From Lytechinus pictus (taxonomy: Eukaryota), in NCBI RefSeq assembly GCF_037042905.1, contig NC_087245.1, positions 22,570,001-22,634,000 on the forward strand: a DNA stretch of 64,000 nucleotides, written 5' to 3'. The translations under genes and the position numbers were made by a program. The notes below the pieces were generated by a model that saw only the letters and a list, made by a program, of their open reading frames with translations, was not told the DNA's origin and ran no database searches. Positions 25,922 to 55,800 of this stretch are shown here, in pieces. Within the stretch, counting starts at the first letter, position 1. Every line of letters starts with the position of its first letter.

Positions 25922-27379
25922 ATGTGGCATTACTATTGTTTAAATATGTCATGGTTAAGTCAAGTTGGTCCTTATTGTCAAATTTGTAAAAATTGAAATA
26001 TTGTATAATTCAAACAATAAAAAACAAAAGAAATAGTGAGTGAGGGACATCATCGATTCTCTCATTTGCATGTGGCTAAATTGTGCATATAACTATTTTG
26101 TGAAAAATAATTAAAATGTCATAACTTTCTTATTTTACATCCGATTTTGATGAAATTTTCAGCATTATGCTTGTCTGATTTTTTTCTATTGATTCAGGTC
26201 AAAAATATTCTGAGGTGGACTTGACCTTTAAACAATCTTTAAAATGTTTCGTTTTTACGCATTAGTGAGGTTATGCCACTTCATGAGAACATGCACACTT
26301 ATATACACTGTTCCTTTTCATGCAGGTCAGTATACATGTATATATTTGTTTTATCTAAGATCAAGCTCGCGCTTCAAGTCTCGCTCGTATATTATTCTTG
26401 TTCATGATTATACAAAAAAAGTCTTATGTGGAGTATTTCATCAACATCTTTGTCCGACAAGTTGTCAGATATAACACCTTTCCTTTATTTTGATTGGATG
26501 AGAGAAGCACTGTTACTATGGTAACTTACTAGAGCCAGGGAACACTGGTCCAGTAGGATATGAAATATATCTGACATTTCATATCTGATTAGTAAAGCGC
26601 TATAGGGTATATATAAGCAAGCTCATTTCGAAAATAAAGTGACATTAATTTATAAATACAAAATTAACTCGCCAAGAGATCTCATTCGTCGATCGAAACG
26701 GTAAAATAGCCCAAATTATTTGGCCAGTCAAACAATTAGAGTTCCAGATCCAGGGGGAGGGCACATCCAGCCTGTGCCCCCCATTTGAGAGCCATAATCA
26801 AACATTTAATGTAAATATGCAGTTCTACACAAGTGTGCTCCCCTTCTGAAAGTCACAGCATGTATGTTTTAATTGGAATATGTCGTACATACACAATTAA
26901 TGAGGACTTTTTTCTTGTCTTGTCAAATTTTCTTCGGGAAATGCCCCCTCCGTTTGGAAAATCCTGCATGGATCGATCCGCCCCTGTTCCCATGGACAAA
27001 GGAATTTAATTATATACTTTTGTCAATCAGGTATATCAAATTAAAAGGGTTGGGTTGAATGAATATCCTTTGCCTCTTTTGCCATGCACCTGTAATATGA
27101 CACCTTACGTTTGATTTTAAATAACAAAATAATAATGTATATGCTTTCAGTCATACTTATGTCATATTATGTAGGACTGTCCACACAGATTCTCTTAAAA
27201 TGAAATGAGATTACAGGAAACGTAATTAATCATTTGAAAAAAAGAGAAACAAATATGAATATAGGATCATAACAGCATTTATTATACATTATTTAATTTT
27301 TTTTCTTCAAAATTTCTCAGGGGGGGGGGGCAACGATTCTGACAGAGGTTGGGGGCACATGCCCCCGTGCCCCTTTTAG

Positions 27380-27514
27380 GGTGTGTGTGTATCTGAGTTT
27401 TGTCAGACGTGTATCAATCAATTATTTCCGTCTGGGACCGACCCTTAACGTCACCATCCGAAAGACGTGATGGCTCGAACCTCTGCATCAATTTGTAACT
27501 TTCCCAAATAGCTT
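27380..27514 (-). mobile_element. 5'-truncated copy of the SINE at 46794-46965
   Basis: Colinear with 46794-46935 (B box GGTTCGAGCC, GTCTTTCGGATGGTGACGTTAA core, (AC)n tail) but lacks the first ~30 nt of the head. Confidence 0.8.
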
Positions 27515-28876: not shown

Positions 28877-31800
28877 GTAAGCTATCCCTGAAGGCTGAAA
28901 GCCGCTGGCGCTGCGAGTGGCTCGACATTCGGCATTCGCACAGCCAAACACGGGTCTCGTGCCCATCATCGAAAAATAAAGCCACACCACGCAAAGGCAA
29001 AGCATCCCCGCAGCTCGGCCCGGTCCGTCCGGTGGGTCCAGCTGAGCTGAGGCTGAGCTTGAAAACAGGGCTAATGCAGTTTCACACTGACTGACTTAAT
29101 TCAGTTAGAGTAAAGTGCCAAAATATCGGACACTTATTTGACCAAAACAAAAATACAATTATTGAATTTGAATCAAATAAAAATCATGATGTTTATTTCC
29201 GTAGCCTCGTAGGGCGTAGTAAAAAAGTATGATGGGGGGACCTAAAGTTGGCTAAACATGCTAAAATAAAGTAAAGCTACGCACTTTGTTTTCAAACAAT
29301 AAAACTATCCCAATTTGTAATATTTCAACAAATATCTTTCACTAATTTGTGGCAAACATTCTAAAGATCATTAACCAAGTCCAAGAAGAAAATATCGCAA
29401 AACTCACTGTCTGGAGAAAAAAATTATTTTACTTATTTCAAGAAAATATCACATTTTCTTTGTGAATTTGAAGAGAAATGACCTTCAGACTGACAGAAGT
29501 CAGAAATGTATAATTTTTGAAAAAAATCCAATTATTGGCTGCTAAAAAGAAGAATGAAATTAGGTAAATTTTCAGCATTTCTCTGCCATAGACTGTGTAG
29601 TTAAGAAATGGACACACACAAATCCAAATTTTTAGCTTCCGAGAGCTGTTATAAATTTATTATTAATGCCAAAAACTTGTCCATAAAGAGTCCAATAGGA
29701 TTTTTTATGCTCTATCTGATGGTATGATTTTTATAAAGATTTGGAAACCAGATCACAATGAAAAATTGTTACAAAGTGAAAAAAATTGTGCAAAACAGAA
29801 AATTCATTTTCCCATAGAAAACGCATGGAGAAATGGCAATTTCAACACACACAAAAATAAGGGTTTGCAATTTATCTTTAAATCCTTATTCAAAATGATC
29901 ATATAAACTTGTCCTTACTGTCAAAAGAAGCCCCTGAATTTTCTCTTTCCATACATGCCAAACACAAGTTAATAATCATTTCAGATCACATTTTTCTAGT
30001 AGCCTGAACTTCCCCGAAAAAATGTGCCATATTTTCCCCTAAATCAGCCTGTTTTATGCTGACACTTTTCAGTGTGGCTTCAGACACCCTACTAATACGA
30101 AAATCCCGCCGTGTTTTCCGAACACCTCTTGATTTCGCCACCCGATGTAGATAGAAGGGGTCCTAAAGCTACGCACTCGATTTATCATGCAAAAAAAGAA
30201 TATTTCCTGTGCCTCAATTTCTAAAATATATTCATATTATTATAGGATAAAATGAAATTTAAGCGAATATAACTTAAAAATTCCAAACAGTTGTTGGTTT
30301 CTCTGCATTTAGAGATTTACTGCAGCCTCTGTAGAAAAAAATTGAATAGGAATCGTTCGTCACTCTGCAGTCACAGTTCCACACACACAGACAGAGTGCG
30401 CATTTGCCATAAAAAATGTATGCGCGAGTGGTGCGTAGCTTTAGGACCCGCGCAGCTTTAGGACCCCCTACCATACAAATGTCATAAAAAATAGAATTGA
30501 AAAAATTATGGTAAATGGAAATTATTTACTTACTACCAGAAGCTTGTTTTTTGCCAAATATCGGATGCAGTTTCCAAATATCGGAGGCGTAGAGTTGTGC
30601 GCTTGATCAATTTCGGCGATTTAAATCGCGCTCTAGACCCCAAAATAATTGCTTAAAGGGGAATCCAGCCTTGGCCATAATACGTTGTGTTGGGAAGGAG
30701 AAAAATAAATTAAACAGAATGGGGAAAGTTTGAAAGAAATCGGATAAGCAATAAGAAAGTTATAGCTGCTTTAAAATTGAGATCACTAATAGTATGTCAG
30801 GGATGCCACTTTTCCGTATTTATACGGAATTCCGGCTTTTTTCCTGCTATCTGTCTTATTTCCGTATTTCCGACTTTTCCTGTTTTCTGTGTATTAAAAA
30901 AAACGGAAAGTCCTCCTTTTTTCCCCCTATCTCTCCCGATTGCGATGCATGTCGATCGACCGAGTGAGAGATATTTCCCCGAGATATTTGCTTTTATACA
31001 GTACATAATTTATAAGCGCGCGCACTGCCTACTACGTTAATTGAGTTATGCTTTTATCAAGGCTTTCTGATTAGAATTATCGATGTCCTGGGGTGGTATT
31101 CTGAGATCCATTTTATCTCAGATAAAATAAAATATTTTATCTCCGTTAAAATCAGTGAGATAAAATACCCTTAATCTCTCCGAATTGGTATTCTGAGAAC
31201 AATTTTATCTCCATTTTATCTCTGTAAGACACACCTATTTTTTAATCAATATCCAATTATAAACGCGCTTTTATAGCTCTCTCATATCACTCAACCAATG
31301 GAAATCCATTCCGCTAGGAGGTGTGGCGAAGGAGTGAGATTGCGTCAATTTATTGACTTCAATACGCTTGCACTATACGCCTGCGCGTCTTTACAGAGAT
31401 TTCTTTTTAACAAAAATGGCAATACTCTCATCTTTTTTTCGAAGTCTATATCGCATCTTTTTAAGCATCATTTCAAAGACAATATTAGTCAAGAAAAGTC
31501 TTAAGAAATACTTCCTGATTGTACAGGAATAACTTTAAGGTGCTGTTCTCAATGAATATATCATTTTTCTTAATTTTCATGCCAACATTTGGAGTTAATT
31601 CACCTAGAAATATTGACGAAATCAACGTCGTGGAGATAAAATAGCCCTTACCCTCTTTTAAGTTTATTTTATTTTTTTCTTCAAAGTAACTTGGGCGCAA
31701 GCACATCACCCGCGTTGCAATGGCCAGATACGCGATGGGTATGTCTACGCAGCCACTGCTCTGTTGCGTATCATCATAGATACGCAAGATAAAATTTATA

Positions 31801-34800
31801 CTCAAGATAAAATTTTAAATTTTATCTGAGAGATAAAATGTCATCTCAGAATACCAATTTCATTTTAAGAGATAAAATAAAATATTTTAAAGATAAAATG
31901 ACCTCAAAATACCGCCCCGGGCCAATCAATGCGAGCGACAAGTTCCGAACGCACGCACATAGACAAGCGCAAAGTAGCGGCACGAATCGCGGTATAATAG
32001 CGACTGGTAAATACGTCTGTAAATATGATGACGTCATCCAAGATGGCAACTTACGATGACCAACGAAGGAATCGAGGATGACTAAGTTTTTATCATCATT
32101 TGAAAGGAATTAGCGGTAAATGCGGTCTAAGGTACGATGTTTCTGAATTTTATATATTTTTTCGTAAGTTTGGATGTAATTATTTTTTCATAATGTGACA
32201 TTTTATGTACCAAAAACGATCCGAAAATCGGGTTTCCGCCGAATGTTAGATCTAACGTTACTGCTGCATGCTGATACGGAACCCAGGGAGCTCCGGCCCG
32301 GAAAGCGGGCCGGAGCTCCTTGGGTTTACGTATCAGCTCCCTGGGTTAGCTGATACGTTGTCTTTATGTACGGGCCAATAACTCTTCAGTCTATGTATTG
32401 GTGAGTGGAGCCAACGCGGTTCAGCTGAACAACCAAAATACAGAGACTGAAGCTTTTAGTCTAGCGTTCTATGAGAAACACACAACTAACTACCGTCAGT
32501 TTTTCAAACCTAATTGACTTCAAAGTCATCGATCACAACAAGGTAAGAAGCCACTTGGTCCTCCCCCCCCCTCCCCTAAATTTGAGGTGGGGGCGGACCC
32601 CCCCCCTCCTATTTTTTTTATTTTTATTTTTTTTTGCTTGTCCAATTTTTTACCTGTGACATGTGTCCATCCCAAAATTAAAGGTGGACCCCCCCAAAAA
32701 AAATTTCTTGGACACTATCCCGGCCCGCGATAAGTTTCAGTATTTTTGGAGGACACCTAGTGGCATCCCTGGTATGTAGATTTCAAATTGGCAACTAGGT
32801 AAGTAAATTATGACAAAGGGCAAGGACAACTTCCCCATAGGCCATGTACTTTATTATCAGGGATTTGTGGTTTTCTCCTAAGTACCCATTCCCCTGGGGC
32901 AGTAATCTCAATATAACCCAGGTAGTATATTGTTTTATGTCCTCATGAAAGAAAAATATAATTTGAAATAAAACTTTTGGGAAAACTGAAATTTTAGCCA
33001 TAATATGTATTGGAGTACATGGAAGAGTAGTCCTTGCCTTACATCACTATGACATCCCATATGCGGCCAATTTGAAGTCTCCATGGGTATAGTGATTACC
33101 AATATTTACAACTTTTAAAAATTCATAACTTTCTTGTTGTTTGTCCAATATTGTTCAAACTTTCACCTATCAACTTGTCTGATTTTTCTTTTTCTTATAA
33201 AAACAAGTTTTTATTTGGGTTGGATTCCCCTTTAATTGTTGATAAATAGTTTAGCTGCGCGAATGCCGATTTTGATTATTACTAGACCTATCAATAATTT
33301 TGATATAGAAATCGGTAAATATTGATAATTTACTTACCAAACGGACCTCTCTCGGCTCTGAACATCAGACGTCTTTGCTCAGCTGCGTGCGACTTTATTC
33401 TTAAAACGAGCGCGTGCGCGTCAACAGCACGCATTTCCAATTCGATTGGCCGATGTGTCCGATGGCGATGTTTGGGATAGTGCCATATTTGGAAGGGTGT
33501 CAAATTTCTCGCCATGGGGAACCCCTGCTGCGGCCATGCAGATTTTTTTTTCGATATATCGAACATGTGTGATCTCGGCGGTGATATTTCTGGCGGACGT
33601 CACTTCCCCCTTACTAAATTCTTTTTGGTCATCGATCTTTTGGAGTCCATAATTAGCGAGGGTCATAAGAATCTCTGGAAGTCAAAATCTTGGTTTTTAC
33701 CACTTGATTTAACCCCTGGAATATTTGTTTTGAGCTGCAACTTGGATTTTCCGTGTGTGCAGTTCAATAGCACGTATGTTCATGTATCTCATGCATGCAA
33801 GTCCCCTGCCAGTGCAGGTCCCTGTAGTTATGGGAGGGAGTTGAAGTCATTTTTGTCCGATATTTGAAACCGTATAATGTTTGGGGACTTTACGGTACTC
33901 TAGGTTTAATTGAGCAAATTTCCCCACCAGCAGATCAAATTTTTCGCAAATATGCACAATTTTGCAAAATAATTCTCTCTCAAAATCGAATCACAATCGT
34001 GACAATTCAATTAGCCTAGGTCTCTGTTAATTCTGCTGAACTCCGTTGGCTCTACTCACCAATTACAGAGACCGAAGTTCTAACTCGATCTGTACTAGCC
34101 AGCTTCAGGAGGCTCCTGGAGAATATCACTGACATGCTTAATCTCCATGGAGCCAGGGATGGGATGCCATTGCTCTACAGACTACACGCACCAAGTATTT
34201 TGCCAACAATAATATTGCTCTAAAATACTTGTTTTCTTTAGGGTTTCGAGCCCAAACTTACATGTATGTAAATGGGCTACCATTTTTACCTTTTTGGCAC
34301 TAAAGAGTCATATCTTAAAATAAAATTAAGTTAGAAAAAACTTGAAAATATTAAAAGTAGAGGAGCGTTTACTCACAGTCTGTTAATGTCGCCATCTTGC
34401 TGTCTTTGTTATTGTAGCCTAGCTACAAGACGCGTATAGAGGGTGACAATATCAGGTGCAGCGCTAACTTAGATAAAAAAAGTACTTGCATTTGCCTATA
34501 AATATCATGAATCTTACCTTATATTTAAAGTTGTCTCAACATACTGTACTTAAATGTGACACTTGGCCGAAGCCTATTAACCGAATGTCAAAGCGGTTGC
34601 AGGTTTTCTCTGCATTTTGGTTATTTATTGCAGCCTCTTTAGAAAATATGAATAACGGAGTTAGTGATCATTATTCACACTGCAGTTACAATGCTAGAAA
34701 ATATTGTGCCAATGTTTTTGCTCTTGGTTGGCTCTTTTTCATGGATAACGATGGTGCAATCATTGTGCCAAAAGACAGCCAGAAAACTGAAAGACTTGCA

Positions 34801-37800: not shown

Positions 37801-40800
37801 ATCCCATGGCAAAGCGGCGTCAAGCAAATTAAATATTTGTTTTACCATTTCAGAAGAGCTGGTGGAGGATGGAGACACTCTGTATCTTCTTGTGCACCTC
37901 AAGCAGGCCTTGCTTGCCCCTACCCAAGAGAGGGTGGAGTACCAGCCTCACTTTGACACCCTTATCAGGAGTGGAATGTATGAGTACTATGCCAGTGAAG
38001 GACAGAATCCATTACGTAAGAATGGGATTTCTTGTTTTTCATTTCAATTCAATCAGTTCTTTTATGCATTTAATTTAGATCACAAAGCATGTATAAAATG
38101 AATCTAGTGCAGAAAAGAAATAATAGAATGTATCATTATTATCATATTGCTGATGTACGAAATTATACAGTATGAAATAAAATTGGAAAAAACCACAACA
38201 AAACACATAGACCTTGATAATTCTTAATTCTTATTACAATTTCCTCACAGCTTTTGCAATAGCTGAACTGATAGACAACTCTCTTGCAGCCACAATGAAT
38301 AATGATGGACCCAGGTGCATAGAAATCAGATTGGTATGTGTTTGTCTGAAGTCATTGAAATTTATTTTCATTTTTGTAAATATCCCATGTTATTATTTCT
38401 GAAAGCAAGTTATATGGTAATGGAAACAGTCTTGTAGACTTTGACCATATTCACATTCACTTTCCTTGACAAGTACCTACTAAACAAAATCAGTTAAATG
38501 ATTGCTTAATTAACATTCGTGGGCAGAGTTATTAATGCATGTTTTTTGAGCAGCTCACTTTCACTGCCTGTTAAATGGCTCTTTATGATGAAATATATTG
38601 TTTTTACCTACATGTAGAAATGTGTATTAGATATTGTGTTTGATGAAATGCACAGGCGAAATCAGTTGAAACTTCCTGGGAAAATTGTACATTATCCAAT
38701 TCTTAGAATGAAACATGGAAAAGCTTTTTGCATGTGACATTACAAAATAAAAACTTTAAAAAGCCAAACTGGTTTATTGTCTAATGAAATATTGCCAAAC
38801 CTTCATTGATAATATTACTGAACATTTGATATAGGGCACTTAAGCTCCCTGTATTCTGTTTATAACTTAAACCTTGGTAACAAATTGAAATGGGTATAAT
38901 CATAATTGAATACAAATGTGATTTGGATTTATTATGAAAAATCATCTTAATAAAGAATTATGAAACAATTGATGCTAAAAGTCAAGTGATGTGTCTCTCA
39001 TTTGTCTTGACATCTGGATGGAATTCCCCTGTAATGATTTATTGAATTGTACTTTCTATTTCACTTTCAATCAGTACCTGGATGAAACGGGGGATAAGAG
39101 CACGGTCTGTGTCATTGACAATGGCAAGGGCATGACAACCAGAGAACTCAACAACTGGGCCATCTATCGTCTCTCAAAATTCAACCGAAAGAGGAGAAGA
39201 CATAAACATCAAGAGAATAACGGGTAACAATGCCTTATCAAACAACAATGTGTGGTTAAAGAAGGGTATCATGTGTTATGATTCTGTATTAGATTATTTC
39301 TCTGTCAGTCACCAGAGAATGGTACCAAAGCAAGAGAATGGTGGGTAGTAGCACATTATTATACAATGATTCATGAATAATTCATGTACATCATAGTATA
39401 TACATCATCTCGGATGATAATATTTGTAGTAAAGTACTCCTTTTGAATTTAATTCAACTGGAAGAGGAAAAGATCAAAACTAGAAAACAATTGGTAAGAT
39501 CACTTCATCAAACATTGATCCATGACTCAGAGCTTCCAAGTCTCCCGGATCCTGCGGGAGAATACTGGATTGCGATCCAATCTCCCGTTCTCCCGACCCC
39601 ATGCCAAAATCTCCCGGATAATCAGGATTTTTAGCTGTTAAATTGTAAAATTCATACAAACGACTGTTTAACGAGTCTAGCATGTTCAATTCCCTAACAC
39701 CCACGTGGAACCTCCTTATCACATTTTCATTTTACCCAGTAACTTCTACCAGTTTTTGTATAATCGTACATTGATTTCCCATGTAAATGAAGATAATTTT
39801 ACTGAACGACTGGTGAAGTAGTCTAACAAGCCATTTTATTTCCGGGTTCTGCAATGTATGATGAAAACTCTTCAGCGGTACTCTATGCACATGGCCCCCG
39901 ATGCGCCCCGGCGGCCGGGGCTAGCTCCAGCCGGCCGCGCTGCGCCAGGAAGCTCCGAGAAGGAAAGTTCACGAGCACTGCGAGGCATTTTTTCGTAAGC
40001 TTGCTTGCGCCTTATTCGAGCTGAAACTGTGGATCAACGATGGGATTAACAAGTGGATTACTTTTACACCTCGACTTTCAGTTTCAGGAATAATTTTATT
40101 GACAATCCTGAAAAATTAGAAGCAAAGTGGAGATTTTTCCGCCTACTTTCACTTGGGTTGATCGGATTCGAACATTTTCTCTTTCGTGAGTGAGCTAGCC
40201 TGGCGCTGGCTCAGTGGCTGGCTGAGCTGTGCGAAGCACGCCCCGTCCCGATTTATCCACACTACAATCGCATCGCCAGTGACCATGGAGATCATGGAGA
40301 TGAAGTCATCCAAGACCAAGACGACAAAATACTTGTCGAAGTATAAAGATACTTTTCAAGCAGAATGGGACTGTGTGACAGTTTTCACAGGAATCCCTCA
40401 GAGACTTTTAACAGTCCACATATTATAAAGCTCATTTACCATGTTTACCACTACTGCAGCCCCTTCCCCCTCTGGCCAATTAAAGGTATTTTCATGTTGA
40501 ATGCATTCTTTTATGAATTATTTAAAAAATCTACTGTTTTGCCTGAAGTGTATATTTAGTCAATGACAATTCATGAATTCTCTCTAATGTGCATTTCATC
40601 TATCGGAATTTTTTTTTTGATGGTTTAGACAGCTGTCGGTTACTATCAAATGTTGTTTCTTAATGTGTTTTGCTACCCAAAACTCCCATCCGTGGGACAA
40701 CGTTCCGCCGCTCCCTCACAAAATCATACCTCCGCGAAATCTACTGGATTCTATCATCCCAATGTTGGCAGCTCTGATGACTATTAGATTGTAGATATTA

Positions 40801-43800
40801 GATAGTAGATTGTACATGTATTAATTCAGTAGCAGAGTATTATTTTTTAACTTTGTGTCCGTTGTATGACAAAGTGTTGCTGGTCCATGCGTAGAGTCCC
40901 TGAGAAATGTCTCGATGTACATTTTCCAATGGCTGTAATATCACTGCATTACCCTAGTCCATATAAAAGTAGATTTCTGATGTTGTTTTCATGATATGGA
41001 TTCAATAATGGTTGCTTGATGAGGATTCGGTCAATCTAGGAGGCTGATTATGACCCAAATAGAAGTTCATGTGAAATTTGTATTCATACCATATCTATGA
41101 AAATTGCACAGTTTTGCACTAGCAGTGATTTTGTCCATTAATATAAATTACAATCATTTGTGTCTGAAAAATGTGAAAATACAACATTAGTTCTAAGTTA
41201 CAAGTTCTAAGTACTGAAATAAAAATAAGGCATATAAATTCTGCAGAGCTTCCAAGTCTCCCGGATCCTGCGGGAGAATACTGGATTGCGATCCAATCTC
41301 CCGTTCTCCCGACCCCATGCCAAAATCTCCCGGATAATCAGGATTTTAATCTGTTAAATTGTAAAATTCATACAAACGACTGTTTTACGAGTCTAGCATG
41401 TTCAACTCCCTTACACCCACGTGGAACCTCCTTATCACATTTTCATTTTACTCAGTAACTTTTACCAGTTTTTGTATAATCGTACGTTGATTTCCAATGT
41501 AAATGAAGATAATTTTACTGAACGACTGGTGAATTAGTCTAACAAGCCATTTTATTTCCGGGTTCTGCAATGTGTGTGATGGAAACACTTCAGCGGCACT
41601 CCATGCACATGCGCCCTGGCGCGGCCCTGCCTGGTCTCTGGCCGGCCGCGCTGCGCCAGGGGGCTACGAGAAGGGAGTCCACGAGCACTGCGAGGCATTT
41701 TTTGTAAGCTTGTGTGCGCTTTACTCGAGCTGAAACTGGATAAACGATGGGATTAACAAGTGGATTACTATTACACCCCGACTTTCAGGAATAATTTTAT
41801 TGACATTCCTGAAGAACAGAAGCAAAGTGGAGATTTTTTCGCCTACGGTACTTTCACTTGGGTTGATCGGATTCGAACATTTTCCCTTTCGTGAGTGAGC
41901 TAGCCTGGCCTGGCGCTGGCTGGCAGAGCTGTGCGAAGCACGCCCCGTCCCGATTTATCCACACTACAATCGCATCGTCAGTGACCATGGAGATCATGGA
42001 GATGGAGTCATCCAAGACCAAGACGACAAAATATTTTTTCGAAGTATAAAGATAATTTTCAAGTGGAATGGGACTGTGTGACAATTTTCACAGGAATCCC
42101 TCAGAGACTTTAAACAGGCCACATATAATTATAAGTCTTTACAGGGCCAGGCAAGCTCATTTACCATGTTTACCACTACTGCAGCCCCTTCCCCCTCTGA
42201 ATAAAGGTATTTTCATGTTGAATGCATTCTTTTATGAATTATTTTATGAATTATTTAAAAAAAATACTGTATTGCCTGAAATATATATTTAGTCAATGAC
42301 AATTCATGAAATCTCTCTAATGTGCATTTATCTATCTGCAAAATGTTTTGATGGTTTAGACAGCTGTCAGTTACTATCAAATGTTGTTTCTTAATGTGTT
42401 TTGCTACCCAAAACTCCCATCCGTAGGACAACCTTCCGCCGCTCCCTCACAAAATTATACCTCCGCGAAATCTACTGGATTCTATCTTCCCAATGTTGGC
42501 AGCTCTGAATTCTGTTATCCATTATTTCTATTTATTTCATTACAGTGATGAAGACAGAGAGATTCCAAAATCTCTAAACAGTGACATCTCATACTTTGGA
42601 GTTGGAGGAAAGCAAGCGGTGTTTTTCATTGGTGATTCAACAAGGGTGAGTGAGGGAATCATTCATGACACTTTATTGAATGTACTCTACATTGGATACA
42701 TTGGATGGTATTGTATGCTTTTCATCTCTTTCAATCTAATCCAATCTAATCTAATATAATTGTATGCCTCTTTTCTTACAGATGATCAGCAAACCTAAGG
42801 ATTCAAAGGATGTTCATGAGATGACCGTATCAAAAGACGAGTTTGAGAGGAGAGAGAAATGCAAAGAAGACATCTACAAGGGCATCATCCATAACAGACA
42901 GGTGAGTGGTAGTTTCAAGTCATTTGTCCAGGAGGCATTAAGTGCACAGACCAGTCACCTGACAAAGTGCTATGCTTATTATTGGTTATTTATCATTTTC
43001 TACCAGAGTCATTTCTCGCATAGGCCTAATATGTTTGTATGCATACAAGCGTTTATTGATTTTGTTGGATTCTGTTCAAATTCATTATGTGATCATTACC
43101 ACAATTTTCAATCTTGTTTATCGATATCTTGCTATTCCCTCTTGAAGCCTGGTGAAGGTAGCCATTTGCCACCTGAGGATGAGATCCTACACAGTCTGAT
43201 CAAGGAAGAGGAAGGCAAGGAGAACTTCACCCATGTCGTCATCACTAGTGTCAAGTCACAACACATCAAGTTCCTCAAGGAGGACTTCACCAGGTGGAGC
43301 AGGCAACTAGCGTAAGTATCCCTTCTTTCTTTCCAAGAACTCTTTCCTTTTCCCCTTCTTTTTCTCTTTGTGGCAGTGTTTCCCTTCTTCCCATGCAGTG
43401 TTCAAATTTGGAACCACTCACCAGGATCTGCTGTAGAGAGGCTGCTGTGCTAGTCATCCGTGTGATGCATCCTCCTGTTAAGTCTTTTGGCCCATATTTT
43501 GAACTAGGATTAATCATAATTGTCCGGGAATAATAACTTAAATAGTTTTCTTTATTGTAAAAGCATGAGGTTAAAGCACAATAGACATAATAACACATAC
43601 ACTGTAAACCAGTTTTAATGTTTGATTGCTATATCTTGTTATCATTGTTTTGTTATATTTTATATTTTGTAAATCCAATGCAAATCAGCCTAATAAAACC
43701 ATAAACCAAACCAAATTTTGATATTTTTGGCTTCTTATAACTCTAGCACAGAGTTAGATCATGGGCTAAAATTAAAATACTCTGTACTTAACATTACAGG

Positions 43801-46800
43801 CGTTAGTTTTTGTAAAGGTAAAAACCTGTATGTTATTTGATAGCTACTGGTTGCATGTTTTAACTCGAAATAATTTGGCTCTTTTTCCCTCAATATTATT
43901 CCAGACACATCTATCACTACTACATCCATGGACCATCAGGCAATCAGTCCCACCTGTCCAACTCCATGTTTCGTACACCGAGCCCTTACAAGAACATTGA
44001 CATTAGCATCACCATGTACAAGAAGGGCCATACCCCACGCCAGCTCAACCTCAGAGACATTGAAGATGATCATCAGTCTAACTTCATCAGGTCAGCCAAG
44101 GACACCTTTGAATTCCGTGTATTGGTTGAAGGAACTGGTCTGGTAGAGGGCGTGCTTCGATATCATCCATTTCTCTTCGACAGAGAGTCCTTTCCTGTGG
44201 ACTATGGTTTAGGTAAGGGGGAAATATATTTATATGTGTGTATAATTGAACAATATATCAGGGCCTGACCTTTACTTTTTTCTTAGGGAGCCAGCCGGGC
44301 TCCTCAAGCACTTTTTTAGGGAGCCCGCATGGGTTTTAAGGAGCCCAAGTTTATCCCTTTTTTTTGCATAATACTGGTCATTACCTATTAAAATATTAAA
44401 GCACACCATCACGATACGTTTTTTGTTTAATAATCATCAGCACCAGTTGTATTTATTCAGGGTAAATCAGATTTTGACACCCCAACACACTTAGACACCG
44501 GTCACAAACACATAAGTCAATGACTTTTTTTTTTTCATTTTTAATGCCCCCCCCCTCAAAAAAAAATTAAATTAAAAAAAGGAAATAAATTAAATACATA
44601 AACAAAATTGATTTTTTTTCATGCTGAATCATGGATGTGGGTTGGTGTGTGTTTGTGTGGGTGTGACTGTGCGGTGGACTTGGATATACATGTATATGTT
44701 AAAGAAATTAATTCATCATCTAATTTCTACTCCAAATATTGTGTTTATATCAGTACAAAAACCACACAGGCTAAGTATGTCACATGTAGGCACATGTTAC
44801 ATGTACATGCATGTATACCCTAACTTTTCCTGCAGTTCTTTGAAAACGCAGATCTCCACGAAAATTGCATTTTTCTATGGGGGAGTCTAAATTTGGTGAA
44901 AAAGTATTCATCAATAACTTAAATATATATCACAATGAAGAAACCATCCAACTTTATTGGTAGTTTTAAAAAAAAACCTGAAATGTAAACTCTATCTGAA
45001 ACAGAAAATCACCATCATTGAGGCCTTTACTGACCGAATTGTCCCCCAGAGCTCAGGCAGAGAGAGAGAGCTCCGACTTGCACAAGTGTCAGTGCGTGCG
45101 TGAGTAAAATCCGGTGGCCTCCTAAAATCAGATGTTGCCATGTTTGATGATTTACTGTCTGATATTTACCCCCTCCCTTGAAAAAATGAAACAAATGATT
45201 TTTCAGGAATAATTCACTACCGAGGTGAGTTATTTTGGATGTTAATAGGCGCCCTTTTGACAAGCAGAGCCGAAGTCTACATGACACAGAATCGTGATAT
45301 CTCTAAGGGAAATGTGTGCATTGAAAATTACACACGGCGTAAATGATAATGGACCCCTGTACATGCAACTGTTTCTCGCACCGGTGTAGCCCGATTCTTT
45401 TTTCCATAGGTACCATGTGTGTGGAAAAACGTGGTACAGAAAAAAAGACGCAGCTAAGCAATTTGGAACTCGCTATTTTCGCTATTTTCAAGGTTTTTTA
45501 TGATTTTGAAAACATAATTTAGACTTACAAAGCGTGGATTAGTGTGCTGGTAAGAAATTGCTTTTTTGGTGGCTGGTACTAGAAAATCTTAGGGAGCCCA
45601 CCGGGCTTTTTCAATTACTTTCTAAGGAGCCCGCAGAGGTTTTAGGGAGCCTTTTGCCACCGGGCTCCCGCTAAAATCGAGCCCTGTATATGATTTGGAA
45701 TGAATTATAGATCTGGAATATGTTGGAATAAAAAAAAAGCTATATGCTCTTTACAATTAGTTAATCAAAAATTGATTTCTTTATGGCTTCATATTGGTGT
45801 TTTTTGCGGAAAAATAAACACATTATTAAATTAGAGCTTGAAATTTACTTGACATGTTTTACTATATACTATCTTTCTTTAGCTGTTCAGGAAGTTGACG
45901 ACGAGAGTGATGTCAAAAGAGATCGACCTGCGAGGGGTAACAAAGCCATCTTTGAGTGCTACTGGAATGGAAGACTCATTCCATATACACTTGTCCAAGA
46001 GTAAGTAGATATATTTAGCAAAATCCATTATTACATATCGTATGTGAAAAGAGTGCATGAGCGGAAAAAAGTTGAGAATAGAATTAAAATTTTTCATCTG
46101 TAGTTTCAGACCAATTTCTCTAACTGATTGGTAAACTTGAAACAACTTATTTTTTTTTCTCATGTTCTATATTCAGCAAGTCTTATAGCGTAGTTATAAT
46201 CTTCATTTTTTTTCGGAGGGGGGGGGGGGTAGGGAGAAGGGAAAGTGTTACAGTAAAAGGAATGTGCAGGTTAGTCCTGTTCTTGTTACTATGGAAAATT
46301 GTATATTTTGTGGACTCTCTGTAGTTATCATCAATGAAAGGCATTCTTCACGCTCCAGTGTGTATGTAGCAGAAATCGTTTAATTCGATCTGTGCTGTTT
46401 GATTCATCTAGCTTTGACTGGTGCAGCGTGCCAAAGAGGCGACTCAGCATTCCTGTCGAGTGCTACAACAGGGTGTCTGGCGCCCTCTTTGCCAACAACA
46501 AGTTTGAGGTCAGCACAAACAAGCTGACCTTCATTGACCTTGAGCTGAAGCTAAAAGATAAGAGTGCTGTCTTTCAGAGAGTGGTAGGGGGTCAGGTAAG
46601 AAAATAAAAACAATCTTTGTAGAATTGTCTTTAATGACTTCTGTAGGTAAACCAATATCAGAGCCCTTTAACATTTTGGTTATTGTTATTCTGTTTAAAA
46701 GACTATTCATGAAATAATCGTATTTTATTTTTCGTATTTTAAATTGATGACAAGTTTTCTTGTCATGGGCCCCAGGTTGGTGATAATCTCAGAGGTGTGT

Positions 46801-49800
46801 GTGTTTGAGTTTTGTCAGACGTGTATCAATCAGATATGATTATTTACGTCTGGGACCGACCTTTAACGTCACCATCCGAAAGACGTGACCAGGGCTCGAA
46901 CCTCTGCATCAATTTGTAACTTCCCCGCATAGCTTGGATTACAGGCGCACGCCACAACGCCCAGGGATTCATTGTAGATATATTATACATATATACATGT
47001 TACAGAGGTATTGTTATGCGGTGAATGTGTTAGCATGCAGGTTAATGGTTCATTGGATGTTGTTAAAGGAGAATGAAACCCTTGAAACAAGTTGAATCCA
47101 TATAAAAAAGAAAAATCAAAGAAACATATTGTTGAAAGTTTGAGGAAGATTGAATGAATAATAAGAAAGTTATGAGCATTTGAATATTGAGATCACTAAT
47201 GCCATGTACATCCTCCTATTGGCAATGCGACCAAGATCTGTGATGTCACACACGTACAACTCCCTCATTGCTTTAGTACTTATTTCACTTACATTCTCAC
47301 TTTTATAGAATCTATCACAAGGTGAGGTGTTCTCTTTATGAGAGGACAAGTACAGAGGTTTCACAACATTGTATCATTGATGAATCGTTTGTCATATGAT
47401 TAGAAAGAGCAAAAAGAGATGTTTTGGGGTATATTTTCAGTGTCCAAAAGGGGAGAGTTGTTCATCTGTGATATCATAGATCTTGGTTGCGTTGCCAATT
47501 GGAGGATCTCCATAGCATTAGTGATCTCGACATTCAAATGCTCATAACTCTTCTATTGCTAGTCCTATTTTACTCAAACTTTTGTTGATCTTATTCTTTG
47601 ATTTTTCTGCTTTCACAAAAGCTAACTTGCTCCAAGAGTTTCATTCTCCTTTAATTTTGACAAGACATTAATCTAGATTTTCCACTCTTTTCCGAGGTTT
47701 TAAATGAGGATATTTGAACTAAGTAAATGTGGAGATGATTTGAAACAAGTTAGACAGGCTTCAATTCAGATATTTTTTAATTATCTCAAAGTGATTTATA
47801 ATTGATGCAAATTTAACAGTACGAGCATGTTCATTGTCTTGATATCCAGCCCCAGAGAGTCAAGATCGACAAACAGTTCACAGAGTGGCTGCATGAGTGT
47901 CATGAGAACCTTGACAAACAGGTCTGTTTCAGAGACTATGTGGGTAACATCATGAGGCATGAACTACCCAAGAAACAGCAAGGACCGTGGGCTGTCTTTG
48001 AGACGGTGGAGTGGGACGGAAAGACATATTCCACAGGACAGCAGGTATGATTGAAAATAGTAAAGATGGGATAGTGGAGATGATATACTGTGATGGACAT
48101 GAATTAAAGTTCCCATTTCATTTTTTTTGGGGCCAGACATTTAACTCTCTCCAAAAATAACATGGTCTGTAATCTGTATTGAAATTAGAGGAAGCAGAGG
48201 AATGAGTAGTTTCCTTGTGTATATTTATGAGTGAAATATGAATAAATGCATTTTCCAAATTTCACTAAATTTATTGTTGTGTTAATTTGATGATTTATGA
48301 GCATTTAGTTTAATTCCTTGTAAGCATTTTGCAGGTGTTGTATATGCCAGATATAGAAGTTGTAAAATTATCTAATATGAGATGATGGATTGTGAAAAGT
48401 AGATGATTGAGATATTTATCCAATATCTAGCTGAAGTAGTTTGTAATTCAGGTTTTAAATCTGGTATTGTCCTTGATTACCTCACACTCAAAAAGATTGT
48501 TCTAATCCTTTCCATCCATTTTGCTCTATCTGGTGTGTCCTCCTTCGTTCCTGCCCCCCTCCACTACTTGCTTCCTTTTCTCCTTCGGTTTCCTTCCCCT
48601 GTAACCGTCTGCCCAAATTTAAATTGCTATCACATTGAACAACAGCTTCAGTAATAGACTACAAGAAGAAGTTTGTAATTGACTAAGTGATTTGTATTAG
48701 TACGTTTTGAAATTACTATTGTTGTGCTAGGTACGAGTCTTGAGGACAAGTCCAATTCTTCATGGATCGATACAGCGCTTCATGTTGTTTGGGGACTTTG
48801 AGAATGAGATCCAGAATGGGACATTGTTTGCAACAGGAGGAGAATTTGAAATTGTACAGGTATGATGCTCCAAGAATCATTTATATTTGTCTTGATTTGA
48901 GATTATTTTGTTTGTAAATAAGAGGTGTAAAAATCAGTATGTCACTGTTGCTGTATGAAGCATTGTTTAGATAAGTATGGAGTGCTAGTCATGCCAAATC
49001 TGATTGGTATTTTTCTATAAAAAGAACCCACTAGGAATCAGCCTGAACTTGGTTCACAGAGGTATGGAAGGCCAAGTGTCAGTTTTAAATATTTAGTGAG
49101 AACATAAAGATTTAAAAAGAAAGGTTTATAAGGAATGCAGAGTTGATTTCAATATCCATTTCCTTTACATTTTATTTGACAGGAACCAAGGCTATTGTAC
49201 AATGAAACAAAGATCTACCCCCTAAGTAAACTGGACAGGACAGCGGATGTGAGGCAGATTAAGAAACACATTGATGATGAAGAAGGAAAGTAAGTCCTTA
49301 TAATGATTGATAAATCACTTTATTTCATTCATTCATCATAAAATACATTAACAAGATAACATACAAAACTGGATACATCAAAATTTAACACATTACTGTA
49401 TAAGGTGTTATTTTCGAGAGGGTTTTATTTTCACAAATTTCGAGAATTGCCTGAACAGCCGCAAATTTAACAACATGCAAAAATATTGACACATGGAAAT
49501 GAGACTGAAATTATGAAATTAAGATTGTATGATGAACTTTTATTCCCAGACTTCCAGGAGTTCTTGTCATCTCATGGCCTGAAGCAAATGAGGTCCATGC
49601 AGGAGAAAAACGACCAGCTGGGAAACTAATAGGTTAGTGCTGAGAGAAATGGTGGAAAAATAAAAAAATGTAGATGGAAGTTTATTTGTTGTTAAAAGAA
49701 AAAGTAGTTGTTGCACATCTCTTAATTCCCCACTGAAGGTGGTTGTTGGAGGAATATTATTTTTTCATGATGCATTCAAAAGTCGTATTAGAGTTAAGTT

Positions 49801-52800
49801 ATCAAATTATTCAGGGGTAAACACATGTTATTTCTTGTAGTGTTCCTAAGTTAAAGGACATTTGTTTGACATTTTTAGTTTTTATACCATAGAATTAACA
49901 CATGTTTCAAAGAGATTATGAAGTTGTTCACAAGTAACATGCAAAAAGAAAAATGACACCACCCTTCCCCCCAAAAAAAAAACCACATACAAGAAAAAGA
50001 ACAGCACACACCAGCAATATATTTGTGATACTTTTATCATTTTGGAGATGGTATGGAGATGTAACAAGGGCATTTGACATGATTTAGTACAAATATTACT
50101 TGGTTTACATAGTTGTTGAGACTTGAAGCATAAAGCATATGAGCCCACCTTGATAATTGCGATGCTATTTATTTGATGACTTGTACTTTTTCCTATATTT
50201 TATTATTTATATTAGTCTTTCATTAACTTGTTTGTTTCATGTACTTTTTTGTGTCTAAAGGTGCAATCAAAGCTGAGATCCATAATAGGAAAGGTCAATC
50301 CATGTCAAGGCTTCCTGGAGCTCAGCATAACTCTAAGAAACTCATGGTGGAAATGAAGATCATCTGGCATTGTGAGTAAGACATAATCAAAACCCTAAAC
50401 CCTATTTAGTGAGTGTCATATCTTCCACTGAGCATGGTTGAATCAGTCATATTATTGACCAATACTTGGGGACCCATTGTGTACGTTGTCAGCATATCAG
50501 CCTGGTGATGTATTTGAGTCAGCAGGGCTCAAACTATGCATGATACTCTGTGCAAACTCTTGCCTTAAACCGGTTGTATGTCTAATTTGCCATTTTCCAT
50601 CCCAATTTAGGCTGCCTTACAGTCAAACCAATGAACTCCAAACCATCCTGTGGTGTATCATTTGAAATACCTTAATAAATTTGGTTGGTTTGAAGTTCAT
50701 TCCCCTATGTGGCATTACTGTAAAGAAAGGCTATGGATGGGATTGCATTCAAGGGTAAAAGTTCAGGGACCGATTGCATAATACTTGTAATGAATGGTAA
50801 CTTTAGTGTCAATGGTAACTGTCATGGTAACATTGCTCAATAGCCAATCAAAGATTTCCTCTGTAACTGTGATTGATTGTAATCGTTGATGCTAAGTCGG
50901 TGTGGTCTAGGTATTGAACAGTGTTAGTGATAATTATGAAGCAATTGTTTGTTTTCCATTCATACAGCCAGCAGTGGTGACAAGGTGATAGTAACCCACA
51001 TGAGTCAACATCACAAGACATGGGCATTCTGGTTTAGGCAGATGGGTAAGACAATCATATTCAGATGATATAAATGTATATCATGAATTATCAGGTTTTT
51101 TTATAAGGCATGTTATACAGCAAGATGAATATTTCTTTTAAAATCACATCTTTAATTTTATTCAAGATGTTGGTTATTTATTCAAAGATTGTGCATGATG
51201 ATGATTATTCATTATCGTGTTTTATTCTTTCAATATGAAAGTAGACTTTGTCCTTTGGTTTTGGCATAGTCATAGATTTGCGTGATTTTATTTTAACTGT
51301 GTATATGTAACTTATATACCTTGAAGATAATGAGTGATATTTAAAAGATTAAAATGGAACTTGGTTTGTCAATTTTCTTTAGATATTGTAAGGAACCTTG
51401 GCCCCCATACCCTGATACTGCAGGCAGTCCTCGGGGAGGAAGGAGCCACTGACTTTGGAGGTCACCCACTACCAAGTCACAAGATCAAGTTCACAAGTAC
51501 AGGTGAGTCTCAAGATTGGTTTTGCTTGTCATACTATCATTTGTTCTAGCCACAAAGGGTATAGCAGAGATGCCAACCCTCCCGATTTCCCGCCCTTACG
51601 ATTACCATCCTTATCCTCCCGAAATTACGATTTTTTTGCATTGATTGGAAGTACATGTATCGTCTGCTAACTTTAGCATGTAGTAACTCCATTATGTTCG
51701 CTGCTATTAAATTCTGTGTGAAAGGCAGACAAATAAGGTGCAGCGAAAAGCTGGTGCATGTGATATGCCCAACGGGATTTGTCGAGTCGTGCGGTGGAAT
51801 ATCGGTGTGTGATTTCGGCATATTGATGGGTTGATATTGACACGAAATGGCGGAAAATCAACAAAAGAAGACCAAGAAATGGTCTCAGAAGTATAAGACT
51901 GAATACAGTCTCCAGTACCCGTGTATTCGGAAGTTGGAAAGAGGAATTTACCATGCATTTTGCACAATTTGCAGCGTGGACATTTCAGTTGAGCACGGAG
52001 GTCGTGATGATATTCGTAGGGAGCAAACGGCATACAGACATTGCGAAGACGAGATCTTCGAGCCCCACTAGTACCCTGTTGACTTATTTCACCAAGCAAG
52101 GGACCAGCGAGGAGGAAGACGTTACCCGCGCCGAGCTTTTCCTTACTGGATTTATAGTTGAACATAACCTGCCTATACATGTAAAAATGCATATTTGATA
52201 TTTTTCTTTAATTTTTATGTTAAAAAGTGGGAACAATGTTTTTTTAAAAACATGTGAAATGCTCCAAAATAAGGGTCAGATTGCACCAGAGAGCATCTAG
52301 AAACCCAGAGCTTCCAGGGCCCTAAGGCGGGCCCTGGAACCCTGGCCGCAAGGGTCGAGCGCTCTGCGCTCGAGATGTGCGCTATGCGCACATAATTTGG
52401 TGTCGGTTGCAAATCCTCCCTAAATCTGATTTCCAAAAGTTGGCATCTCTGGTATAGTCACATAACTTACAAGCAAGTGCCAATATATTCCTATTTACTT
52501 CCAAGCACAACTAATACTAAAAAAATTGAAAGATTGTATCCATTTTGGTTTTGCTACATATCATTATAAGTGATCATGAAGTGGCTCTGATGTAATTGGT
52601 CAATTTGTCACTTGGCATTGAACGAGTTTGCAAAGTTCATCAGCACTAAAATGACAGAAGTGAAGAAATAAAGATTGTTTATTTCTTCAAAACTAAAATG
52701 TACTGTCAGTTTTTGTCTCACCTGCATAGCAGAGTGAGACTATAGGCGCCGCTTTTCCGACGGCGGCGGCGTCAACACCAAATCTTAACCTGAGGTTAAG

Positions 52801-55800
52801 TTTTTGAAATGACAGCATAACTTAGAAAGTATATGGACCTAGTTCATGAAACTTGGCCATAAGGTTAATCAAGTATTACTGAACATCCTGCCTGAGTTTC
52901 ATGTCACATGACCATGGTCAATGGTCATTTAGGGTCAATGAACTTAGACCATGTTGGGGGAATCAACATCAAAATCTTAACCTAAGGTTAAGTTTTTGAA
53001 ATGTCATCATAACTTAGAAAATATATGGACCTAGTTCATGAAACTTATACATAAGGTTAATCAAGTATCACTGAACATCCTGCATGAGTTTCACGTCACA
53101 TGACCAAGGTCAATGGTCATTTAGGGTCAATGAACTTAGACCATGTTGGGGGAATCAACATCAAAATCTTAACCTAAGGTTAAGTTTTTGAAATGTCATC
53201 ATAACTTAGAAAATATATGGACCTAGTTCATGAAACTTATACATAAGGTTAATCAAGTATCACTGAACATCCTGCATGAGTTTCACGTCACATGACCAAG
53301 GTCAATGGTCATTTAGGGTCAATGAACTTTGGCCGAATTGGGGGTATCTGTAGATTTACCATCATAACTTTAAAAGTTTATGGATCTGATTCATGAAACT
53401 TGGACATAATAGTAATCAAGTATTACTGAACATCCTGTGCAAGTTTCAGGTCACATGATCAAGGTCAAAGGTCATTTAGGGTCAATGAACTTTGGTCAAA
53501 TTGGGGTATTTGTTGAATTACCGCCATAACTTTGAAAGTGTGTTGGTCTAGTTCATAAAACTTGGATATAAGAGTAATCAAGTATCACTGAACATCCTTT
53601 GCGCATTTTAGGTCACATGACCAAGGTCAAAGGTCAATGAACTTTGGCCATAATGGGGGTATCTGCTGAATTACCATCATAACTTGGAAAGTTGATGGAT
53701 CTTTCTCTTGAAACTTGGACATAAGAGTAATCAAGTATCACTGAACATCCTGTGCGAGTTTCAGGTCACATGATCAAGGTCAAAGGTCATGTAAGGTCAA
53801 TGAACTTTGGCCACGTTGGGGGTATTTGTTGAATTACCATCATATCTCTATAAGTGTATGGGTCTAGTTCATAAAACGTGGAAATAAGAGTAACCAAGTA
53901 TCACTGAACATCTCGTGCGAGTTATAGTAGTTTTCAAAATCAGCACTGCTGCTATATTGAATCGCGTGATGCAGGTGAGACGGCCAGAGGCATTCCACTT
54001 GTTTTCTTTGTGTAACAATGCAATTTAGGTATAGCATGTTGTGTGTAAAGAATGCAGTAAAATGCTCTGTTTCTTTAGACCAGGGGTTCTCAAACTGTTT
54101 CTTTGAAGGGCCAGATGAGACTCTAAGTAAACCTGAAAGGGACAGGGTGAAGTGGATACTTAGAAAAAAATGTGCGCGAAGCGCAAAAACCCTTGCGGTC
54201 GGGTCCTAGATGCTCTCTTGTGCAATCTGGCCCTTACTTTGGGAGCATTTAATCCAACAAATTTATAACAGTTTCATATGGAACGCAGGCAAAATTAGAA
54301 AAGATTTCAAAATACAGCGAGAGTCAATATTAATGATAACAAAATTGTAGTACTTAAAGGAATCTAGATTGTACCTATACATACCTGGTATTGGGGAGAC
54401 AGATAATGTCTTGAAGTATCAATATTTTTTGTAGTCAAAGTAGAATGAATAATAGAGCATGTCTGTTGTGTACTCTAACAAGGGTATCAGTTTCCTAATC
54501 ACTTTCAATATGGGGAAACGCGACAGTCTGTCAGCCACAAGTTGCTTGAACCTTGGCACAAAAGGTGTAATTGCCAGACAAAGGCACTGGTGCAAATGTT
54601 CACTGGTCAAGCAGGGGCCGCGGAAGCGGGGGGGGGGGGGGGGGATTTTTTCCATAACCATGTACAAAAACGTGAAAATGACCATATGATTGTGATTTTT
54701 TGCATGGCCAGCCCCCCCACTGTTTGAAAACCATTCCACAGCCCCTGTCAAGGTACTTCGGTATGAGTTAGTTCTTTAAAATGTTCATTGTGGAAAATGC
54801 ACTTTCGCACCTGTATGTAGATCCAAACATGGTGAGAACAGCGCTGGTCATCTAATAAGAAAGAAGATCGAAAAGAAAGAAAGACTCCACTAAACTTTGT
54901 TTAAAAGTCATATTATTTTGACTGCCATTACTTATATTACGGTTAGGTCTACATGGATACACAATGTAATCATACTGAGCTATGTTTCATATTGTGACTT
55001 AAAAGTGATTAAAAAAAAAACCCAGCAGAATCTCGCGGGCTGGATAGAGAAGCTCCGCGGGCCGGATCTGGCCTGCGGGCCGTAGTTTGAGAACCCCTAC
55101 TTTAGACGGTGCAAACTGGACACTTTGCACAGCTTGGCACTGATCTTAACAAATCCAACAATTCATGAAAACACATTGGTTGTTGGAAATTGTGCCTTAC
55201 ATTGCCAGATCATGAGAATTAAATTATGGAACTCTTTTTCAATCCTGTATTCTGTTAAACAAAACTATTTTCTCTGTTAAACAGAGGGTCCACCAAGCAA
55301 GTTCAGCATTGATATCCTGGATCCACCGTTCAGGGTAGATGTCCCTTTCAACATTCCTCTTCAGCTACAAGATGAGTTTAACTATCCAACCAAGCCAACA
55401 AACAGCCTCAAACCAATCCTTGAAGCAAGGTATACCAGTCGAGCTTTAGATACAAGTTAAAGGAACATATTATTCTAAACAAAGGATGAAAAAGAATGAT
55501 TAGATATTGATCCAGATGAGCACTGACAAGTTGCTTGGAATTGTGGAGGAATACCCAGAAAAATGTTAAATAGTTGTTGTCATAAGAGTTGAAGTGAAGG
55601 TAAAAGGTATAAAGCTAAACATTTCTAAGTCCAGACCTATTAATGAAATATTGGTGAGATTGGTTGATATTATTGAAAATTGTGATTGTAGATAAGAAAT
55701 ATAAAGATCAAAATGAAGATTTAAGTCATATTTTTTTGGCTTTCATCTTTAGTGGCCTTGCCATGAGCTATGAGAAAACTGAAATCAAGGGTATGTCTTT

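Follow-up and report, generated by a model that had tools for sequence, protein, structure and literature searches.

A 64,000-nucleotide (nt) stretch of genomic DNA from the sea urchin Lytechinus pictus (RefSeq assembly GCF_037042905.1, contig NC_087245.1, positions 22,570,001 to 22,634,000 of the forward strand; hereafter the window) carries a 171-nt repeat that is a genuine short interspersed nuclear element (SINE) headed by 7SL, the signal recognition particle (SRP) RNA, with an architecture unlike those described. It is very likely a young, non-autonomous SINE that arose when an older Deu/Nin SINE with a tRNA head had its 5′ half replaced by 7SL nt 1-47. The original prediction, made from the letters alone, placed an Alu-like, 7SL-derived SINE here on the minus strand, and the element was found at that place; the term Alu-like is apt for the 5′ domain and fails for the remainder, which lacks the 3′ Alu strand and poly(A). 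The parts of the element and its second copy in the window are as follows (L numbers denote loci, and citations here and below refer to the portions of those articles available to us).

46795-46965, minus strand: whole element, 171 nt, with +1 at 46965 and (AC)5 ending at 46795
46919-46965, minus strand: 7SL-derived head, nt 1-47, the entire 5′ Alu domain (40-41/47 versus host 7SL genes L031 and L037), comprising in order the closing helix, helix 3, a UGUNR-type turn and helix 4
46951-46960, minus strand: putative RNA polymerase III (Pol III) A box, nt 6-15, within the head, positioned from human 7SL (PMC7245038)
46889-46918, minus strand: spacer and tRNA-like T-arm, with no significant 7SL match
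46892-46902, minus strand: putative Pol III B box, nt 64-74, seen in the sequence and named by its fit to the B box consensus
46853-46889, minus strand: short Deu/Nin-like core, by-eye comparison
46816-46852, minus strand: 3′ stem-loop, from the fold of copy L007, a candidate recognition site for the reverse transcriptase (RT) of a long interspersed nuclear element (LINE)
46795-46804, minus strand: (AC)n tail
27383-27514, minus strand: second copy, 5′-truncated and more diverged, beginning near nt 31

The 7SL origin of the head is as good as certain, and its extent is exact. Genome-wide, the Rfam metazoan SRP model identifies seven full 7SL genes (L031-L037) at 272-283 bits, and the window copy is identical to five of these in 32 of 33 columns and to the other two in 33 of 34. 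Over the full 5′ domain, a typical copy matches L031 at 40 and L037 at 41 of 47 positions (two genes tested), bearing out the origin first proposed from human 7SL. The same model search yields 18 weak matches of 32-35 bits, below the cut-off of 70, and all eight that were fetched are family copies; for the window copy by itself, the SRP model is not reported in an Rfam scan at E ≤ 10. Models for tRNA and 5S RNA are also absent from that scan, as anticipated for a 7SL head, and the best of its six weak matches is mir-1268 (20.7 bits, E = 0.33), which we take to be of Alu origin. ARAGORN finds no tRNA genes in the window and makes no tRNA call in five loci with family copies; the 5′ end is not tRNA-derived, and the only tRNA-like piece resembles a T-arm, at nt ~57-77.

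We found 132 full heads, of which 117 were parsed and 15 were not. In 80 of the 117 the 7SL part stops at nt 47 and in another 19 at nt 45, on the final base of the domain-closing helix. The three pairs of this helix are formed in 97, 114 and 110 heads, the pairs of helix 3 are retained in 109-116, and three pairs of helix 4 are formed in 114-115, with its fourth pair in 14. The UGUNR-type turn, which together with helix 3 had been recognized in the window copy, is intact in 112 heads and loop 3 in 97; variation in head length is located in loop 4. Because the copies are young, these counts characterize their source elements and say nothing independent about selection. Of the 117 heads, 110 have U-A as the third closing pair, like paralog L037, and the remaining six host 7SL genes have C-G; the donor of the head was therefore probably an L037-like paralog.

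The host genome carries a bindin gene (PF02084, 236.7 bits, with no match in any of 14 control genomes), as befits a sea urchin, the group that bindin marks. The element belongs to a large, dispersed family. In the 811.7 Mb of genome searched, an 18-mer from the head occurs with at most one mismatch at 1,355 sites (including the seven true 7SL genes), and a tail 18-mer occurs at 1,482 sites under the same threshold, with sites on many contigs and none genome-wide for the reversed control patterns of either, in accord with the prediction of a dispersed chimera. A DNA search gave 1,651 first-look candidates, and the 40 that were scored resolved into 45 matches, most of them ~99% identical and sharing a starting base. 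All of these copy numbers are lower bounds, and they place the family at 1,350-1,650 copies at least. Among 48 long matches, from loci chosen nonrandomly from motif lists, the median identity to a typical copy is 94.8% (range, 78-100). The truncated second copy in the window, also noted from the letters, is confirmed at 87.9% identity to the first over 141 columns (E = 3e-47).

The copies also bear the marks of retroposition. Among 133 tailed copies in loci L001-L125, 109 are full length and share one 5′ end, which speaks against chance juxtaposition of head and body, and 24 are truncated, seven of these beginning just before or at the core hairpin. The 7SL +1 base opens 86 of the 109 full-length copies (the window copy has a non-majority base here), an additional A precedes it in 64 of the 109, and an AC run of 4-30 nt, the (AC)n tail of the original prediction, ends 130 of the 133. 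Removal of tandem members and repeated flanks leaves 104 copies with unique flanks, and 23 of these have target-site duplications (TSDs) of at least 5 bp, compared with a mean of 2.7 and a maximum of 6 for shuffled flanks; for TSDs of at least 8 bp, the numbers are 10 and a null mean of 0.14. The TSDs usually begin with CA or AC and overlap with the tail. Three host repeats have each been struck repeatedly near one CA-containing site (L005/008/009/015/084; L006/021/026/056; L016/029/091), with differing junctions that indicate separate insertions. Fold-back sequence of at least 5 nt precedes +1 in 6 of 110 copies and is long in only one; at the 5′ junctions of L015, L072 and L096, an inverted stretch of the element's 5′ end stands ahead of the insertion, as cDNA fold-back predicts. 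We take the combination of short or absent TSDs with tail-primed junctions to resemble L2/CR1-type insertion, and an L2/CR1-type partner LINE is a tentative suggestion that we hold at somewhat below even chances.

SINEBase defines SINEs as interspersed elements shorter than 1 kb, with 100 copies or more, that match tRNA, 5S or 7SL at 60% identity or better across no fewer than 60 nt (PMC3531059). The 171-nt element fits this definition in length, dispersal and number, and over its first 60 nt it is identical to 7SL at 43-44 positions (72-73%), with real homology limited to 47 nt. With a simple-repeat tail, TSDs in a minority of copies, and 5′ truncation, we are highly confident that it is a true SINE. 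It is not a plain 7SL retrocopy, having a fixed chimeric body with no 7SL match beyond nt 47. One could suppose instead that the copies are one-off chimeric retrocopies of 7SL and a repeat, or a repeat that spread chiefly as a passenger or by tandem duplication, and some do lie in duplicated flanks (L039-L044, L048/L049, L057/064/067, L100/L106) or in tandem (L012, L079); this is most improbable, however, as one fixed junction is common to all full-length copies, 104 of 133 have unique flanks, TSDs are in excess, and there are subfamily variants.

Several loci illustrate other fates of the family. L012 (981-1994) contains a head-to-tail array of six nonidentical units inside one 9-bp duplication, with the most diverged unit last, and L079, L023 and L050 are further tandem-array loci; arrays of the L012 type suggest template jumping, or else that new copies repeatedly entered the 5′ junction of an older one. 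The idea that these arrays are hammerhead retrozymes was rejected, with no core visible by eye and no ribozyme match in the Rfam scan of the window copy. In L039-L044, a dimer (a monomer in L040) has identical flanks on five contigs and is thus a passenger within another repeat. Differing elements resembling miniature inverted-repeat transposable elements (MITEs), with G-rich/C-rich inverted ends, are inserted into family copies (L086 and L096, with L061, L105 and L169), three of them at one same trinucleotide directly past the B box; we presume them to be PIF/Harbinger-like. Two near-identical copies (L100 and L106), ~83% identical to the main form, make up a divergent subfamily whose helix 4 is 7SL-like and whose B-arm hairpin differs. 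Because this subfamily and decayed copies (L110, L111 and L114) exist, the family is older than its recent burst. Among sequencing runs, at least half of 13 search words were present in 14 of 24 rows, all from one organism, and six RNA rows (3-4 words) are evidence of nothing.

Beyond nt 48 there are no significant matches to 7SL, its helix 5 included, the last 60 nt of host 7SL scoring p = 0.83-0.99, and the 3′ Alu strand is absent. A B box was correctly predicted, with one or two B box words in 117 of 130 copies counted; the hint that it belongs to the 7SL-derived sequence is not supported, and the 3′ half of a tRNA fits this segment better. An origin of the first ~85 nt entirely from 7SL, in which nt 48-85 have drifted and a B box has arisen in situ, as in Alu, leaving no tRNA part, would accommodate a global alignment that can be extended to 7SL nt ~87 and 18-19 matches in 39 columns between nt 48-85 and the next stretch of 7SL (shuffled mean, 14), and the hagfish element retains 96 nt of the 7SL 5′ part (PMC7245038). 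However, 18-19 of 39 is not significant (p = 0.14 and 0.07), local tests give p = 0.18-0.56, the L100 subfamily matches 7SL at only 13-14 of 40, and the tRNA score is higher in six of eight variants, although it is not significant for the two oldest copies. We regard an all-7SL origin as improbable.

A fairly likely source of the B arm, judging from its sequence, is the 3′ half of a tRNA. The long B-arm variant matches host tRNA-Arg(ACG) at 17 of 22 positions, compared with 12 for tRNA-Lys and 12-14 for the arms downstream of 7SL genes; for the short variant, which is the window form, the corresponding matches are 14, 11 and 11-13. The most tRNA-like form of the arm is found in all four long copies retaining the 7SL base in loop 4, versus 3 of the 29 other long copies. 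A genome search with the exact B-arm motif returned no sites, and with two mismatches 20, of which 18 share one sequence (three of three fetched are tRNA-Arg(ACG)) and two are family copies; because that tRNA guided the design of the motif, these matches add little. Tandem clusters of tRNA-Lys(TTT) and tRNA-Arg(ACG) genes lie at 9.70-9.74 Mb of contig C4 and 10.80-10.81 Mb of contig C14.

The host 7SL genes themselves offer another candidate source. Within the genes, a pattern search finds a single weaker B box word, near the 3′ end, and six of the seven (L031-L036) have a canonical B box 18-42 nt past the gene end, downstream of the terminator, retained even as the paralog flanks differ and, for some genes, lying within a perfect T-arm-like hairpin; a literature search for a downstream 7SL B box in animals found nothing. 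If this box were joined to the 5′ domain by a genomic deletion, with the Deu core and tail added later, the B arm would be of 7SL-gene origin, and nt 49-85 do weakly match the downstream flanks (p = 0.036 and 0.012). Yet the likeness is restricted to the B box word (12-14 of 22, against 17 of 22 for tRNA-Arg), L037, the paralog nearest the head, lacks such a box within 600 nt, and Deu domains come after tRNA heads in the hagfish families described in PMC7245038, such that this route is distinctly improbable. For the graft of the 7SL head onto a tRNA-derived B arm, the downstream position of the 7SL box may itself be the explanation: if the box is a working promoter element, then a retrocopy or Alu-style deletion product would lose it, and with its promoter lost, the 5′ domain could spread only via a borrowed B box. 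Three of the 7SL genes, on contig C10, also have a diverged family copy ~35-40 bp upstream, oriented like the gene and duplicated with it, at the following positions.

L031:878-1460, diverged family copy upstream of a 7SL gene
L035:1295-1464, diverged family copy upstream of a 7SL gene
L036:1316-1464, diverged family copy upstream of a 7SL gene

The remainder of the body resembles known SINEs over a short span. About 28 of 37 core positions match the AmnSINE1 row in Fig. S4 of PMC7245038, compared by eye; the Deu-like stretch corresponds by eye to the start of the Deu domain (~37-40 nt), with the rest of the ~130-nt domain largely missing, and the Deu/Nin likeness originally perceived thus holds by eye for ~40 nt. 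In copy L007, the 3′ stem-loop has a folding energy of -13.0 kcal/mol, with z = -4.4 in a window chosen by eye and -2.2 in a wider one. There is no internal four-T run in a typical copy, and the first such run past the end of the window copy is near 46700. The A box region of the window copy has the same letters as host 7SL, and together with the B box and the lack of an internal T4, it provides indications, and only indications, of Pol III transcription.

A plausible path can be sketched from these parts. An older Deu/Nin SINE with a tRNA head would have had its 5′ half swapped for host 7SL nt 1-47, probably by template switching. Pol III, directed by the 7SL A box together with the tRNA-derived B box, would then start at +1, and the transcript would run on to a T run in the flank; its 47-nt head would fold as the SRP 5′ Alu domain, bind SRP9/14 and park the RNA on ribosomes, where a LINE protein would recognise the 3′ stem-loop and prime at CA/AC target sites. 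By analogy with Alu, we lean toward the head working through SRP9/14. In HeLa assays, a 46-nt 5′ Alu domain had ~86% of the activity of full Alu and the 3′ domain 7%, the latter being needed, according to the authors, mainly as carrier of the B box (PMC11760393). The 7SL piece might alternatively provide only an A box and a start site, with no SRP9/14 role and mobilisation via the 3′ stem-loop alone. LINE partners besides mammalian L1 recognise 3′ structures (PMC7245038), a stem-loop is present in the tail, and helix 4 is irregular, with its fourth pair in only 14 of 117 heads; but nt ~6-15 would suffice for an A box, and yet the retained piece extends exactly to the folded domain's final base and varies in length in loop 4 while its stems remain paired. 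We consider this unlikely, although it deserves serious weight. The fullest proposal is that of an independent invertebrate 7SL SINE built on a bare 46-47-nt 5′ Alu domain, which could spread only via a tRNA B box graft, the 7SL B box lying outside the transcript, and which would exploit SRP9/14 to get to ribosomes and commandeer a LINE other than L1; taken as a whole, this is tentative, falling just short of an even call.

A number of observations weigh against one part or another of this account. SRP9/14 dependence has been demonstrated only for L1-driven Alu, and the head does not reach its minimum energy in the SRP-type fold (-8.0 when forced versus -12.8); host 7SL genes are likewise off their minimum in this fold (-11.2 versus -14.8 and -8.3 versus -12.6). 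Conservation among young copies reflects common descent and not selection on individual copies, and the U-A third closing pair may be plain inheritance from L037. For the B arm, the long and short forms are overall unassociated with the loop-4 state (p = 0.24), the comparison covers two tRNA types with a motif shaped on tRNA-Arg, and the B arm of the L100 subfamily fits tRNA-Lys (p = 0.006) better than tRNA-Arg (p = 0.11). TSDs of at least 5 bp are missing from 81 of the 104 unique-flank copies, the window copy, for which no TSD is detectable, among them. In a shallow search for the partner LINE, none of 40 regions downstream of RT domains matches the tail (40 of 150 listed, from 12,239 candidates, several regions falling short of the element's end). 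In one LINE family (L162, L186-L191), (AC)n is present in the 3′ region at an internal position, and the tail match is not significant (p = 0.11-0.35). Finally, a similarly shallow search found no tRNA-headed sister with the same core among the loci examined. The 36 tail-listed sites without the exact head motif comprise 24 copies with a 7SL head and 12 that are 5′-truncated or split, and the 20 loci that the L100 search contributed, like the 20 contributed by the L110/L114 searches, have 7SL-type heads, truncations or decayed copies; an old tRNA-headed parent would escape such searches because they demand close identity.

One of the nearest known parallels is the hagfish SINE1-1_EBu (Ebu1-1), an independent and young 7SL-headed chimeric SINE outside mammals, with ~2,400 copies, a microsatellite tail and a proposed 7SL swap onto an older tRNA SINE (PMC7245038). 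Unlike the urchin element, Ebu1-1 retains 7SL 5′ (96 nt) and 3′ parts around a central deletion, uses the 7SL B box, and has RTE-derived tail pieces and ~17-bp TSDs (PMC7245038); the urchin element, from an invertebrate host, keeps 7SL nt 1-47 only, joined to a tRNA-like B arm and a Deu-like core, and its TSDs are short or absent. Alu/FLAM, B1 and the shrew-mole Urop share a 5′ Alu domain at the 5′ end beginning from 7SL +1, but in all of these a central deletion leaves the 3′ Alu strand in place, the tail is poly(A) and L1 does the moving (PMC13023118, PMC11760393), whereas the urchin element has none of the 3′ Alu strand, the central-deletion join or poly(A), and its tail is (AC)n. Its head equals the 46-nt minimal domain sufficient for Alu retrotransposition in HeLa, with a foreign B box added (PMC11760393). 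The tree-shrew Tu SINEs are also 7SL/tRNA chimeras, the leftmost unit perhaps of dual 7SL and tRNA origin (PMC13023118); they are set apart, by description, by their mammalian SINE1 descent and complete Alu-type monomers (PMC13023118, PMC7245038). DeuSINEs (sea-urchin SINE2-3_SP, BflSINE1, AmnSINE1, SINE3, EbuSINE1) appear, by eye, to share with it the first ~40 nt of the Deu/Nin domain (PMC7245038), and head replacement is known among them, with 5S rRNA and LINE-promoter heads; the heads described in the available portions of these articles are derived from tRNA, 5S or LINEs, not 7SL (PMC4824008, PMC5804259, PMC4758252). The urchin core is shorter than the 70-120-nt invertebrate Deu forms.

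The hagfish element was called the first clear SINE1 outside Euarchontoglires (PMC7245038), SINE1 was restricted to primates, rodents and hagfishes as of 2024 (PMC10886601), and in 2026 the shrew mole was added to the 7SL-SINE hosts, all of which share a central 7SL deletion (PMC13023118). In the portions of the literature available, named sea-urchin SINEs belong to the SINE2 (tRNA) series (PMC4824008, PMC5804259, PMC4758252, PMC3531059). We found no description of a 7SL-headed echinoderm SINE in the open literature, an unclassified or tRNA-labelled entry in Repbase, Dfam, a subscription paper or a supplement being possible.

Within the window, the element lies ~200 bp downstream of an exon of an SMCHD1-like gene, to which it is antisense, and apparently sits in an intron, a placement suggested by the GT following the reading frame.

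46401-46595, plus strand: SMCHD1-like exon (PF22899, E = 1e-22)

Exons of this gene span 42755-46595 on the plus strand, with PF22899 matches at 43864-44268 and 46401-46595. Elsewhere there is an exon with THEG repeats (7324-7929, minus strand; PF14912, E = 4e-41) and an inverted-repeat (MITE-like) family in several partial copies (15313-15918, 25922-26231, 23998-24140, 47063-47654, 33123-33235 and 30653-30790). Further repeats, at 9539-10453, 24425-25261, 39528-42508 and 52771-53923, include an exact 458-bp tandem duplication, which could be an assembly artefact, a 368-bp inverted repeat (99.7%), a 1.25-kb direct repeat (89%) and a ~190-bp satellite.

The sea-urchin family would extend 7SL-derived SINEs beyond supraprimates, hagfish and one shrew mole to the invertebrates (PMC13023118, PMC10886601), and would break the rule, as given in the available text of PMC13023118, that all 7SL SINEs have a similar central 7SL deletion. 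It is nature's equivalent of the minimal Alu domain engineered in the laboratory, and its young, near-identical copies should serve as insertion markers. With its tractable embryo, the urchin offers a direct test of whether ribosome targeting through SRP9/14 aids retroposons relying on non-L1 LINEs; if so, Alu's ribosome-targeting trick would be portable across LINE clades and phyla.

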